From Candidatus Saccharimonadota bacterium (lineage in GTDB: Bacteria; Patescibacteriota; Gracilibacteria; Absconditabacterales; Absconditicoccaceae): a DNA stretch of 32,000 nucleotides. The stretch is taken from positions 870,001 to 902,000 of the forward strand of contig JAUIDC010000001.1 of assembly GCA_030429145.1 (NCBI GenBank). Direction: 5' to 3'. A program made the position numbers and the translations under genes. Below are positions 6,978 to 26,359 of the stretch, in pieces (positions within the stretch are counted from its first letter, which is position 1; the number at the start of each line of letters is the position of its first letter). The notes under the pieces are model-generated. The model was not told where the DNA came from and did no database searches. It saw only the letters and a program-made list of their open reading frames with translations.

Positions 6978-7158
6978 AGAGTAAACCTTTTTCAGGCCTT
7001 AGTAAATGAACGCGTTTATATTGATTTCTCGCCAAAAATCAATGAGAACTGATGAGTAAGCCCTATAAACAATTGGTTACAAGCCAAAAATCAGGGTATA
7101 AAATATAACTGAGCTACTATGGAGAGACACTGCGATCAGCAATGTCTTTTTCGTTTGA

Positions 7159-7180
7159 GCGGGTTTGTCTAGCAACAACT
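7159..7180. repeat. 22-bp direct repeat, copy 1 (candidate att core)
   Basis: GCGGGTTTGTCTAGCAACAACT, identical to 25594-25615. Followed 4 nt later by CAAGACTAAAA (7185-7195), which also follows copy 2. Confidence 0.6.
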
Positions 7181-7353
7181 AACTCAAGACTAAAAAGATC
7201 GGCTTCAAACAACTCCATTAAATTCGACAGACGGCAAAACTGAACGGGATGAAATGAGGGAGTTGTAGGTTGGAGCAGATGCCGTCTGTAACTGCATATC
7301 ATATGCAGGAAGAAGCCATAACTCTCTTTTTTTATCTCGTTTTTTTTGACCAC

Positions 7354-7494
7354 ATGACAGAAGTACAGCAAAGAACAACTCAAAGTATCGTCGGTGCAAT
7401 CGACTCGTTCCCTTTCCACAAGAAATACAACGAGTATGAGCCAACGTATACATACGATCAAGAAATTGAAAGAATGGAAAAAAACCTCGACTAG
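7354..7494 (+). CDS. small acidic hypothetical protein (46 aa)
   Basis: ATG 7354, TAG 7492-7494. Translation MTEVQQRTTQSIVGAIDSFPFHKKYNEYEPTYTYDQEIERMEKNLD. Preceded by a CTTTTTTTATC motif like other early genes. Same strand as the following operon. Confidence 0.35.
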   Translation: MTEVQQRTTQSIVGAIDSFPFHKKYNEYEPTYTYDQEIERMEKNLD

Positions 7495-7518
7495 TTTTAT
7501 ATCGTCCACCTGCCAATC

Positions 7519-8511
7519 ATGAAAACAGGCAAGAATGAGACTCCAGGATATTATGCAGTCATACCAGCTCCAGTGTTATTTGCGAGAAATATCAATGACA
7601 CGCAAAGAGTCTTATATGGCCACATATCTACTCTCTGCAATAAAAACTGAGAGTGTAATGCTGGGAACGAGTATTTTGCCAAAGCGATGAGCAAGTGAAC
7701 GGAGAAAAAGAAGGAGAAGGAGAAAGAGAAAATGAATGCCAAGTATATCAGCTCTCTCATAAACGATCTGAAAAAGAAATGATACATAGATACGAGAGTA
7801 GAAAAGGATCTATGAAACCAAAGGATAATCACTCTCACAGACCTGCTAAAGTTAAAAAAAGAAGTGATCAAGACTATCCAGAAAAAACAGGATAGCTATC
7901 CAGAAAAATCTGGAGAGGGGTATCCAGAAAAATCTGACCAGCCCTATCCAGAAAAATCTGAACATAATAATACAAGTGATAATAATACAAGTAGTAATGA
8001 TATTACAGAGCAAGGCTCTGACGATGAAAAATCTGATGAGGAGAAACCAAAAGAATATGGAAACAAGGAAATAAATGATCTCATAAAAAAACTCAGAGAA
8101 AAAGCATGAGAACTATGAATAGTTTACTCAACAGATTGAGAGAGAAACTTCTCTAAGCACATACTTTGAGCAAAAGACTTCTGACAACTAGCTGACGCCG
8201 AGAAAAAATCCAGAACTGCATTGGCGCTATGGATCATGGAGCTAAGTATGCAATACTGAGGAGATTATCCAGCATGATGACCGAAAAAGATCTATCTGAG
8301 ACGTTCAACAATACTCAATGCATACAAGCTCGAGAAGATAAAATTGAAATCAGCAGATCCAATATCTTACTTCATAGAAAACGTAGAAAATCGAACAATC
8401 AAACAGGATCTCATAAAGCGATACGATGGAAGGAAAGACAAAAAGCTACCAACCAGCGAAAATACAGTCAGAGCAAAATATGATGAAATGCTCGAAAAAA
8501 TGAAAAAATAA
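7519..8511 (+). CDS. replisome organizer / DnaD-like HTH replication initiator (330 aa)
   Basis: One frame (pos mod 3 = 1) from ATG 7519 to TAA 8509-8511 with 12 in-frame TGA, verified codon by codon. N-terminus YAVIPAPVLFARNINDTQRVLYGHISTLCNKNGECNAGNEYFAKAM...ISSLINDLKKKGYI matches the phage replisome-organizer winged-helix pattern. Central YPEKS repeats are encoded by iterons. Confidence 0.65.
7875..7960 (+). repeat. four direct iterons inside the initiator gene (candidate phage origin)
   Basis: TATCCAGAAAAA(A/T)C(A/T)G at 7875, 7897, 7921 and 7945. Spacing is 22/24/24 bp. The last three are identical 16-mers (TATCCAGAAAAATCTG). Confidence 0.55.
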
Positions 8512-8546
8512 ATACCCTTTTTTTATCCGCTCACCATAGCGAACCG

Positions 8547-23485: not shown

Positions 23486-23937
23486 TATTTATCCTTATAC
23501 TTTGAAATAAAATACCTAATGAAGTCGGTGAACAATCCAGCTAGTTTATCAAGCATGATGTTTCCCAATTTATTGAGTCATGCTATCCCTAAGAATGCAC
23601 CCATACCGCTGAACAAAGTGATCCATACAAGAGACTGAAAGACAGCACTTGCCAATAGCCCAAAGATTGCTCCAGAGAAAGAGGCAATAATAACAAGGAT
23701 AAAGAAGTCCACTGCTGAGAACTCAGTTTTGTTTTCTCTCGATATCTTAAGTTGTGCAGTCGCGTGAACAATTGCACCAAAGAAGATGAAACATGATAGT
23801 AGTATCCGCTGGATCTTTGTGAGAGTCATGCGCACAGTTCGATATAAAGTGTTTCTATATTTGTGTTTTCTTTTGTTCGAGTAGTTCTCTATCTTTTTTG
23901 ACACTTTCTGGATCTCGTCATTTTTGGTATGTTTCAT
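23485..23937 (-). CDS. membrane protein, holin-like (150 aa)
   Basis: Track ORF 23578..23937 extends through TGA 23578-23580 to TAA 23485-23487. Basic N-terminus, then ILLSCFIFFGAIVHATA and FFILVIIASFSGAIFGLLASAVFQSLVWITLFSGMGAFLGIAG. Confidence 0.55.
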
Positions 23938-25555
23938 CTTTATGCGATCATTTCGATCGATGGTAATGATGAACTATAGCATCGTCGCACCTAAACGCCT
24001 GATCCTTTTTTTTCATCTGATATCGTAGGAGATTATCGACACCTACATGATTGAACTCACAATCGAATATTTCGTTGTTTTCTGGTATCAATGATCTATG
24101 GATCATAAAATGCTCGCATATATTTCACTCGTCTTCTGAGACAGTACCAGTATTGAATGAAACAAAATGTTTTCCATTATTCTGACAAGCATTGTATGCC
24201 TTCATCACACTCTGATGGTCGAATGCTATATCATCAGAGGCAAAGACTATCCACTCCCCTTTTGCTTTCGCTACTCAGTCTCTGAGGTTCTCAGGACAAG
24301 TTTTCTCGCTGTCTTTCTGGACTACGATCTCTCGGTGTGGATATGATAACTCCTCAATACTTTTCAAAACTCTCCTGAGTCATTCTTCTCTGTCCCCACG
24401 AGTTGGTATCACGAATGAGATGAGAGGATATTCTTGCTTCTCTACGTCCTGTCACTTTGCAATAGCAGAGAGATTTGCATGTTTATTGGACATTTCTATG
24501 TTTCATATCTGCGCATATGCCCGAGTCAGAAGATCATGAGGCATAAACGTATAGTATGGTGCAAAGTTAGAGTAGAAATTTCATTGAGGAATAGCGAGAA
24601 CTGCATGCAACAGAGGTATAGCATGATGAGGCATAGCTGACACTGCATAGTATTCAGCTAATTTCATCAATGGCTCTCTCCTTCATGGTTGACAGTGATA
24701 TGATTGCATCAGTCGTTTTATAGCCTCGTCCAGTTTACGCTCTTTGAGTGCAATCTCCCCAAGGTGGATCATAGACTGAGTTGTGTCATATTTGTCTCAC
24801 ATAGATATATGTCTGAGAAATTCTTGTTTTGCACTGGCAATATATCACCTATACATCAGCTCTCTCGCAAAATAGTGCGAGTTTCTATCATTTTGTGGAG
24901 AAAAATAGCAATCATATGCCAAGCCTTTCAGATATCAGTCACGATTTGTTTCTACGTTCTGGTAGTGCTCGAGCTTCGCGATGCTCTCATCAAGATATAT
25001 GCGTTTTGCATCACCTTGTAGAACTTCATGGATCACACCTACCCGCTTGAGTTTCTTTCTATTGTAAAATTTTGAATGCATAAACTGTACCAATGGCTCA
25101 TTCTTCTCATCATGAGAAAAAACAAACTGATACTCAAATTGTTCTGCACCTTGTTCAATCAGCGCGTTTATTTTGTCTATATCCAGCTTAGTCCAGATCT
25201 CATCGCAATCCGGTGTAGCTATCATATCAGTAGGTGCAAGATCTGCTATGTAATTTCTCGCAGCTGCAAAGTTAAATAGTGTCTGTCATGCCTCTATAAT
25301 AGGCTTTTCACCTTGGGCACAAAACTTCTCATTGATCTTTCTCGCGAGATCTGCATCAATGGTTATTTTGAACATGTCACCGACCGCATGCACCTCACAT
25401 CAAAGATCACGTGCGACTTGTACTGTATTGTCAGTACTACCCGTATCTAGTAGCACTATTTTCCCTCCCCTTGATTGGAAATCAGAGAGAGACTCTATAA
25501 GTCTTGGTAGTGTTTTACTTTCATTTCTAGCAATAAGTGCAAAGCTAAACTCCAT
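23855..25555 (-). CDS. bifunctional glycosyltransferase: GT2 - TPR-like linker - GT2 (566 aa)
   Basis: ATG 25555 to TAG 23855-23857, 15 TGA, verified line by line; contains track ORF 24935..25225. Domain 1: FALIARNESKTLPRLIESL...IVLLDTGSTDNTVQVARDLG...ATPDCDE. Middle: helical repeats (SHYFARELMYRGYIASAKQEF...LGEIALKERKLDEAIKRL). Domain 2: LISFVIPTRGDREEGLRRVLKSIEELSYPHREIVVQKD...WIVFASDD. The last 83 nt overlap the next gene. Confidence 0.75.
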
Positions 25556-25573
25556 GTGTTTTTTTTATGTTAC

Positions 25574-25600
25574 TAAAAATGCCCGCATATAGTGCGGGTT
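25574..25600 (-). terminator. rho-independent terminator after the LamG/fibre operon
   Basis: Minus strand reads ACCCGC-actatat-GCGGGC followed by ATTTTTAG. The upstream half of the stem is part of the 22-bp repeat. Confidence 0.55.
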
Positions 25601-25615
25601 TGTCTAGCAACAACT
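25594..25615. repeat. 22-bp direct repeat, copy 2 (candidate att core)
   Basis: GCGGGTTTGTCTAGCAACAACT, identical to 7159-7180. CAAGACTAAAA follows at 25648-25658 and overlaps the LamG stop codon. Confidence 0.6.
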
Positions 25616-25651
25616 GTTTTGATTTTACTATATACATGTAGTATTGCAAGA

Positions 25652-26359
25652 CTAAAAGCTAAGAAATGGAAGAAAAGATCCATCGTCGGTGATGAAGGGA
25701 TATGATAGTCCAGCTCATCAATTATACAGTTCAAGAGCTTCGGCATCAGTGACCTTTTTATTTCGCACTCATACCTCATCAATTCTACCATCGAACCATT
25801 GTGTTGATGTTTGATATTTACCAATAGTGAAATAGTTACCAGCATCTGAACTACCACCGGCTCATGAACTACTGATAGATGTGACCTCTGCACCATTAAG
25901 ATATCAACGCACAGTTGATCAATCATATGTGAGCATAATATGATACCATGTCCCTGCCGATAATGTCACAGTATAGAATGCTCTCTCACTACCTACGGTA
26001 TCTCTATTTCTCCAGAATATCAGTTTATTTGTACCGCCGGACCAGGTACTTTTGTCATAGATGATTGCAAAGAAATTATTACCTGTAGTAGTTGATAAGT
26101 GAACGACTGTTTTTCCTGATCATCCATCGCTACTATCGACATTTATCCATCATGCGATACTGACTGCACTACCTCCGTTGATACCAAGGTTGCTAGCAGT
26201 ATATATCCTATCATTCGTGCCATCAAAATCATAGCATCAATCTAGCTTTCACGATGCAGAGTATGTTGCACCATCCAGTGTGAGATTATATGTCGAAAGT
26301 TCGTCATTGACGGTATTATTAAGTTTATAATATGCGACCAAATTATCCGTCAATGCCAT
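25652..26359 (-). CDS. LamG / concanavalin-A-like lectin domain protein (235 aa), probable receptor-binding or fibre-associated
   Basis: ATG 26359 to TAG 25652-25654, 11 TGA, verified line by line. GKLDGCYDFDGTNDRIY...AVSIAGWINV...TWYHIMLTYDGSTVRGYLNGAEV...YFTIGKY...WFDGRIDEVGVRNKKVTDAEALELYN follows the LamG jelly-roll signature. Confidence 0.8.

Follow-up and report, generated by a model that had tools for sequence, protein, structure and literature searches.

The window analysed here, a 32,000-nt stretch of a Candidatus Saccharimonadota genome (contig JAUIDC010000001.1, positions 870,001 to 902,000 of the forward strand), carries an exact 22-bp direct repeat, GCGGGTTTGTCTAGCAACAACT, whose two copies bracket an 18.4-kb interval containing a tyrosine recombinase (integrase) gene. 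The best overall explanation of this arrangement, to which we give a probability of about 0.6, is a single prophage read in genetic code 25 (TGA = Gly) with the repeat internal to the phage. The host junction lay off the repeat, the corresponding empty sites of relatives lacked the 22-mer, and the DNA flanking the repeat on its inner and outer sides proved to be related, from which it follows that the interval is not an element bounded by the 22-mer. All gene calls were made under code 25.

It is very probable that both 22-mers lie inside one prophage, that the 18.4-kb interval is no separate element, and that the right-hand copy (copy 2) is native and the left-hand copy (copy 1) secondary. 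As we picture it, the left 25 kb of the prophage would sit between a host ATPase gene and a host gene designated Z. The interval would comprise the early arm (replication, recombination, methylase, GroES/GroEL and integrase genes) together with the distal late genes, which encode a glycosyltransferase (GT), a holin-like protein and two proteins of unknown function. Copy 1 and the 11-mer that follows it would be a secondary copy of the terminator arm downstream of a LamG-domain gene, placed in non-coding DNA at the phage's left end. Replication, lysis and virion genes occupied one block that interrupted host synteny, the right end of the block falling outside the window. GroES/GroEL, the holin and the GT were found inside the interval and the fibres outside it, and judging from their sequences the genes on the two sides can be taken as the halves of a single phage whose size is typical of its family.

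The host junction and the empty sites of relatives

A search with the ATPase, the last host gene before the insertion, found L008, a 1.1-Mb chromosome in which TGA is also a sense codon and which keeps the order XseA, pyruvate kinase, ATPase, followed by the divergent 384-aa gene Z. A protein search with Z in turn returned an ortholog (P0249) on the source's own 936,577-bp contig, as well as closer relatives. An empty site was common to four relatives (L008, L016/L017, L018 and L019), in which the intergenic DNA reads TTTATATTGA..GC(C/T)AAAAATCAAT and then directly A(A/T)AAAGCA..TTTTA..TAAAAATGGCTT..ATG of Z. The window matched these relatives up to ..AAAAATCAAT, ending at position 7043, and then continued as GAGAACTGATG.., which had no counterpart in any host relative; past the palindrome formed by the two conserved blocks the relatives run AAAAAGCA..TAAAAATGGCTT..ATG into Z, and the window departs after ..ATCAAT. 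The host order XseA, pyruvate kinase, ATPase | Z was thus broken after 7043, and the junction between host and insertion (7043|7044) fell at the palindrome edge, 115 bp to the left of copy 1. Gene Z was encoded nowhere in the window, which means that the insertion exceeds 24.9 kb and extends beyond position 32000.

These comparisons bear directly on the att-like appearance of the repeat. A preliminary description of this DNA had placed copy 1 at the host/phage junction and had proposed related genomes as a place to look for the uninterrupted site. Host homology stopped at 7043 and the repeat began at 7159; four uninterrupted sites were found, and none of them (L008, L016-L019) matched the 22-mer at up to five mismatches, so that the single core copy expected of an attachment site in relatives was missing. 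The repeat did have one property of att sites, in that its direct copies flanked a site-specific recombinase gene.

That recombinase is the only integrase visible in the window and, as the same description had noted, lies between the repeats. It lacked an arm-binding domain and had the two-domain organization of Xer-type enzymes; its best solved relatives were XerA, XerD and XerH, and inspection suggested R148, K174, H242, R245, H268 and Y277 as candidate catalytic residues. Within a collection of 5.8 billion proteins, the next best match after its own entry was only 34% identical. A Xer-type enzyme acting on an inverted-repeat target would give a coherent account of the 7043 junction, and the phage-encoded Xer-like recombinase probably joined a phage site to the conserved host intergenic palindrome, although this pairing is argued from sequence.

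An 11-bp element, GCCAAAAATCA, occurred twice in direct orientation, at 7031-7041 within the host palindrome and at 7083-7093, 52 bp inside the phage. Its repetition inside the phage would suit a recombination site with a second binding sequence, and it may represent that second site for the recombinase or else be left over from an earlier event. No second copy of a palindrome half-site was present in the window. Two other candidates for arm sites were set aside: a 26-nt inverted match between 7023-7048 and 25326-25351 was no better than many chance pairs, and both copies of the 17-mer GCGAGAAANATCAATGA are coding and were equalled in 2 of 100 shuffles. The 17-mer, inverted at 7582-7598 (+) and 25329-25345 (-), resembles the junction sequence at 7029-7045 and encodes ARNIND in the replication protein and ARKINE in the GT. 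Two observations concern the labels of the records recovered: L008 is labelled Candidatus Peribacteria despite its use of TGA as a sense codon, and host ATPase homologs at 42-45% identity were found in records labelled Woesearchaeota or Methanosarcinales (L010-L015).

The repeat copies, the terminator hairpin and the LamG/GT gene order

The two exact copies of the 22-mer are far beyond chance. The repeat search and shuffles bore out the earlier report of a direct repeat present exactly twice: no third copy was found in the window at up to three mismatches, none of 100 shuffles yielded a match, and degenerate copies at up to seven mismatches occurred only in numbers seen in shuffled sequence. 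Apart from the pilin paralogs and the tandem repeats of the collagen-like gene, the 22-mer is the longest exact repeat in the window. A second shared block had also been described, and it is real: the 11-mer CAAGACTAAAA occurs exactly at both sites, 4 nt past the 22-mer at copy 1 and 31 nt past it at copy 2, the latter one base from the position first given. An 11-mer was shared by 30 of 20,000 random pairs of 60-nt stretches drawn from the window. Exact searches with the 22-mer in viral, genome and metagenome collections returned no match, and neither the 22-mer nor an analogous spacer match was found among the relatives. Two sharp-edged copies, a second block at a different spacing and the lack of degenerate relatives together point to a recent copying event or to a constrained pairwise relationship.

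Two properties that had been ascribed to the repeat did not survive scrutiny. The dyad symmetry around CTAG, likened to that of recombinase core sites, held at only 5 of 10 positions, a value equalled by 53% of random 22-mers from the window, and the TAGTTTTAT motif said to lie on both sides of 25615 was absent there, its nearest matches (at most one mismatch) being at 24713 and 29503. CTAG-centred motifs were also considered as operators and rejected, the core octamer TCTAGCAA and a 12-mer showing no clear enrichment.

Copy 2 proved to be part of a terminator. On the minus strand, CCCGCA-CTATA-TGCGGG followed by CATTTTT sits 54-70 nt past the LamG stop codon, has the hairpin and T run of an intrinsic terminator, and was listed first among the terminator-like sites of a 19.7-kb scan. 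The extended fold had a z-score of -2.95 and a 10-bp outer stem; this long hairpin starts 40 nt past the LamG stop, and 19 nt separate its last paired base from the GT start. The hairpin arm (25593-25612) nearly coincided with the region of identity (25594-25615), in agreement with the earlier observation that copy 2 forms half of a terminator stem. Because the identity matches a hairpin arm and copy 1 has no partner, copy 2 appears native and copy 1 looks secondary.

The genes on either side of copy 2 were found together elsewhere. The GT, a member of a ~570-aa family, had 870 matches, mostly on contigs of ~40-48 kb, and the gene for this GT2+TPR glycosyltransferase seems to be conserved within the virion module of a large group of uncultured phages. 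The co-directional order collagen-like fibre, LamG-like protein, GT was present, with gaps of 1-80 nt, in L003 (GT 63% identical), L004, L005/L006 and L007; L003 also has part of the 1186-aa protein encoded upstream. None of the phage loci L003-L007 contained the 22-mer. Since this order is kept in five phage loci, the site of copy 2 is an ancestral intergenic spacer and not the junction of two elements, and since those loci lack the 22-mer, the DNA on its two sides was linked before this phage gained the repeat. The outer flanks are therefore not foreign to the inner ones, as they would be at att sites: the GT, inside, adjoins LamG and fibre genes, outside, in all five loci, and on the left the outer flank of the interval consists of the 115-bp phage left end and host DNA. 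Codon and tetranucleotide usage gave no informative separation of the two sides of copy 2.

The preliminary description had offered two readings. The one that made the repeats attL and attR of an 18.4-kb satellite or stacked element is contradicted by the synteny break at 7043|7044, by the empty sites and by the ancestral neighbourhood of GT and LamG. The other, a repeat within one larger prophage, is supported in outline; the junction motif cited for it is not there, and the "recombination scar" that it invoked is unproven.

The collections searched held no close relative of the phage. Queries of IMG/VR with the integrase, GroEL, the 1186-aa protein and the replication protein, aimed at close relatives, gave only GroEL matches at 40% identity, and the phage collection yielded no nucleotide match. 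The phage nearest to this one, L003, has in place of the integrase a 3.4-kb glycan cassette that encodes a 290-aa protein and an NAD-dependent epimerase. Repeated blocks, three in number and colinear, border this cassette (13338-13896 and 16771-17366), and one of them is a hairpin with compensatory changes.

Possible role of the repeat and competing explanations

The role of the repeat is unproven. The repeats are direct and the two phage arms are transcribed in opposite directions, and the leader copy is consequently an exact complement of the late terminator arm. As a tentative possibility suggested by this orientation, a leader RNA complementary to the late-operon terminator might prevent that terminator from forming. 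A plus-strand early leader carrying copy 1 would pair over 22 + 11 nt with the 5' arm of the terminator and the LamG stop region of the late transcript, and such pairing would block terminator folding and permit read-through into the GT, the holin and the downstream genes. That the left-end leader goes further, and serves as a trans-acting anti-terminator RNA coupling early-arm transcription to GT/holin/lysis read-through, is distinctly doubtful.

Folding predictions were consistent with such pairing. The non-coding left end folded better than shuffles (z-score -3.1), and CAACAACUAACUCA, which includes the 3' half of the 22-mer, lay in a predicted loop with an unpaired probability above 0.8. 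The predicted net pairing energy was -13.9 kcal/mol after the opening costs of both partners, and the cofold beat two separate folds by 21 kcal/mol while keeping the full intermolecular duplex. The leader thus has, by prediction, the complementarity to a functional target element and the accessible seed expected of an antisense RNA, the complementarity being automatic from the repeat. Along the left end we noted a promoter-like site (7076-7104), a hairpin with a T run (7126-7150), a long hairpin (7227-7291) and a palindrome (7293-7309).

Several points weigh against the account given so far. A perfect 22-bp direct repeat around the sole integrase is a classic att signature, and the right end of the prophage lies beyond 32000, which puts attR, the total size and a possible third 22-mer out of view. 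The crossover point within or beside the palindrome is undefined, the pairing of recombinase and palindrome comes from sequence comparison, and the palindrome, with arms of 8-10 bp and a gap of 8-14 nt, is not a textbook Xer core. As for an RNA role, the complementarity arises by construction from any direct repeat between oppositely transcribed arms; the sole upstream plus-strand promoter-like site matched at 9 of 12 positions, in a density not above that of shuffles, and is followed by a hairpin and T run of its own; and conservation in relatives, which a functional antisense RNA would be expected to show, was seen neither for the 22-mer nor for an analogous match.

Within the same anatomy, the repeat could instead be a functionless footprint: a patch of the LamG-GT spacer (the 22-mer and the stop-codon block) would have been copied to the left end by a past rearrangement or by unequal phage recombination, and then trimmed. 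Its restriction to two copies without a degenerate family and its absence from three large collections and from all relatives fit such an origin, as does the 4-nt versus 31-nt spacing, which resembles an indel in a duplicated segment, and genes for a Rad52-like annealing protein and an exonuclease are present in the phage. We nevertheless find it somewhat doubtful, because the two blocks match perfectly and end sharply, what survives is a structural unit (a hairpin arm), and a translated search of 7040-7560 found no further vestige of LamG or of its flanks. Exact conservation would equally suit a constrained protein-binding site, at which a phage regulator bound to the 22-mer, perhaps with the 11-mer, would control both the early leader and the GT-holin cassette; both copies are non-coding and stand beside promoter-like or terminator-like elements preceding operons. 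Against this, the dyad symmetry and the density of promoter-like matches are at chance level, the spacing to the 11-mer varies, the TCTAGCAA octamer and the 12-mer are not clearly enriched, and the visible 25 kb of the phage revealed no repressor-like gene, all of which makes a shared operator unlikely.

We regard it as very unlikely that the repeats are attL and attR of an 18.4-kb element with its own integrase, nested in or stacked beside a second prophage that starts at LamG. What speaks for such an element, besides the perfect direct repeat around the sole visible integrase, is that the interval is without virion genes and holds a replication initiator with iterons, and that the 22-mer and its left neighbour form an imperfect palindrome, like recombinase sites. 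The host junction, however, is 115 bp away in a different sequence, the empty sites lack the 22-mer, GT and LamG are neighbours in five repeat-free relatives, and GroES/GroEL and holin inside with fibres outside make two halves of one phage. The hairpin centre TATAG is not in copy 1, which excludes a crossover at the palindrome centre, and in protein searches the 936,577-bp source contig yielded no further, diverged copy of the GT or the integrase. Nor does the interval qualify as a satellite of the P4-like or phage-inducible chromosomal island (PICI)-like kind, having no att boundaries and holding a holin, GroES/GroEL and the GT of its relatives' virion-gene block. A tandem double lysogen, with attP between LamG and GT and a deleted left copy, was also rejected, since the palindrome and 115 bp expected between GT and 22-mer are absent. 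Finally, the repeats could be a recombination substrate at which the annealing protein or the integrase deletes or excises the 18.4-kb arm, now and then or as part of a programme, giving a replicating circle and a defective structural remnant. They do enclose a Rad52-like protein, an exonuclease, a replication initiator with its origin and an integrase, but a length of 22 bp is little for annealing-based recombination to work efficiently, the repeat is unlike the palindrome at the host junction, neither of the two resulting halves would be viable, and no reads or relatives support the event, which leaves it barely credible.

Genetic code, gene content and comparison with known systems

The window uses genetic code 25, in host and phage genes alike. 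The longest standard-code open reading frame (ORF) was 295 aa and the standard-code ORF list was fragmented; with TGA as sense, the summed length of ORFs of at least 100 aa rose from 5950 to 21840 aa, with ORFs of up to 1194 aa. The assignment of TGA to glycine follows from the GPKGRN motif of the phage GroEL, in which both glycines are TGA. TGA made up 18% of glycine codons in host genes versus 31-43% in phage genes. Standard-code tools mis-annotate such regions, and the gene coordinates of the preliminary description, which hold under code 25, do not under the fragmented standard-code list. Coordinates are collected in Table 1.

Table 1. Features of the window, in order of position
Feature	Position	Strand	Evidence or remarks
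Cellular genes	1-6977	-	Exonuclease VII large subunit (XseA), four pilin-like genes, pyruvate kinase, T2SSE-type ATPase
Last host gene, T2SSE/PilT-type ATPase	5643-6977	-	79-84% aa identity to L008/L016, same neighbours; Pfam T2SSE on orthologs
Conserved host intergenic palindrome TTTATATTGA..AAAAATCAAT	7015-7043	.	Alignment with four empty-site relatives; proposed attB-derived part of attL
Non-coding left end of the insertion	7044-7350	+	No homology to host relatives; holds both repeat blocks
22-mer copy 1	7159-7180	+	No local hairpin partner; 3' half in predicted 16-nt loop of plus-strand RNA
11-mer CAAGACTAAAA copy 1	7185-7195	+	4 nt beyond 22-mer copy 1
Early arm	7519-21288	+	Replication initiator through tyrosine recombinase
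Replication initiator, first early gene	7519-8511	+	HTH_36; PHROG replication initiation
Rest of early genes	8547-19326	+	Rad52-like annealing protein, Gp157-like, FtsK-gamma, HNH, C5 DNA methylase, RNase T-type exonuclease, unknowns, GroES, GroEL (Pfam)
GroES	17328-17630	+	
GroEL	17662-19326	+	
Xer-like tyrosine recombinase (integrase), 297 aa	20395-21288	+	Pfam Phage_integrase 3e-25, residues 161-333
Late arm	21530 to window end	-	All genes on minus strand
Late arm, interval-side genes	21530-25555	-	GT, holin-like, 166-aa and 325-aa proteins of unknown function
Holin-like protein	23485-23829/23937	-	Pfam/PHROGs
GT2+TPR glycosyltransferase (GT)	23855-25555	-	Pfam/PHROGs; homologs in phage loci
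Terminator hairpin after LamG	25574-25615	-	Inner GC stem CCCGCA/TGCGGG, outer AU stem, then CATTTTT; 22-mer is the 5' arm
22-mer copy 2	25594-25615	+	Within 96-bp LamG/GT spacer
11-mer CAAGACTAAAA copy 2	25647-25657	+	31 nt beyond 22-mer copy 2; overlaps LamG stop codon
Late arm outside interval	25652-31873	-	LamG, collagen-like tail fibre, 147-aa protein, 1186-aa protein (Pfam/PHROGs)
LamG-domain protein	25652-26359	-	
Collagen-like tail fibre	26361-27386	-	

On the host side, four tandem type IV pilin-like paralogs (1758-3826) with a conserved N-terminus, FTLIEMLIVIVIIGIL, lie between XseA and pyruvate kinase and are missing at the corresponding position in the host relatives L008 and L016. 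Within the replication initiator gene, iteron-like 24-bp repeats, TATCCAGAAAAATCTG, at 7879-8059 encode YPEKS repeats and are likely, from their sequence, to be the replication origin. The closest relatives of the phage GroEL in the viral collection were just 40% identical. Between GroEL and the integrase, an AT-rich and poorly coding stretch of ~1 kb (19330-20394) holds the sigma-70-like site that scored highest in the scan (11 of 12 positions, at 19743-19715 on the minus strand), a hairpin (19777-19800) and a palindrome, TTTCTAGCTAGAAA (19809-19822), and may be a lysogeny control region.

The early and late arms converge at the recombinase gene. A palindrome, TACTAGATCTAGTA, stands straight after the integrase stop (region 21285-21443), and a 52-aa minus-strand ORF overlaps that stop, so the converging arms have no non-coding spacer between them. 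Late transcription runs through the genes for the 1186-aa protein, the 147-aa protein, the collagen-like tail fibre and LamG, then the copy-2 spacer, and on through GT, the holin-like protein and the 166-aa and 325-aa proteins. No Pfam or PHROG family matched the 1186-aa protein (28313-31873), which over residues 508-871 shares 35% identity with a 725-aa protein of L003. Solved structures, searched by sequence, gave no match for the 325-aa protein. No tRNA or tmRNA genes and no Rfam families (at both thresholds) were detected in the window.

Phages are known to regulate termination through repeats of about the size seen here. In the P4 CI RNA (seqA/seqC), the P1/P7 C4 RNA and antisense attenuation generally, RNA copies of ~20-nt phage repeats pair and act on termination, and in these systems the pairing causes termination or blocks translation within one operon. 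The pairing proposed here would differ in joining transcripts of opposite arms and in preventing termination. If this reading is true, it would provide a simple, testable case of phage timing control by RNA pairing in a hard-to-culture lineage. The repeat is also reminiscent of T4-type promoter-stem-loop cassettes and moron boundaries, where a hairpin-associated repeat marks a module edge (compare the cassette of L003). In the present window the repetition is confined to a single hairpin arm, and what lies between the copies is 18.4 kb of essential genes.

Campbell-type prophages (lambda, P22, P2), and islands accreted in tandem at one att site, share with this region an exact direct repeat around an integrase and one copy near the host junction. 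They differ in that the repeat here lies off the synteny break, is absent from the empty sites and has its second copy in a conserved operon, the real junction being another sequence. An integrase bracketed by a perfect direct repeat is thus not sufficient grounds for calling a mobile element: once empty sites were compared, the boundary shifted by 115 bp, onto another sequence. With the Xer family (XerC/D-dif, XerH-difH, XerA and Xer-exploiting elements) the system shares a ~300-aa two-domain recombinase and an inverted-repeat host target. Unlike in those systems, a phage encodes the recombinase, whose identity to any Xer is only ~30%, and the target is an intergenic palindrome, not known to be dif, that lies between two divergent genes and has atypical arm spacing. 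The analysis has mapped the left attachment junction of a prophage in a TGA = Gly bacterium, where the integrase is Xer-like and the intergenic target a palindrome.

TGA-dense prophages have been reported in Gracilibacteria and Absconditabacteria (12 and 15 cases; Liu et al., mBio 2023, PMC10746230), in a study that neither describes nor analyses att sites. The prophage described here resembles those cases in being an integrated region dense in in-frame TGA, within a TGA-sense host and with integrase and tail genes; unlike them, it was placed by empty-site comparison and carries GroES/GroEL and a Xer-like recombinase. It belongs to the reported kind of code-25 prophage, and its repeat is att-like in form only.

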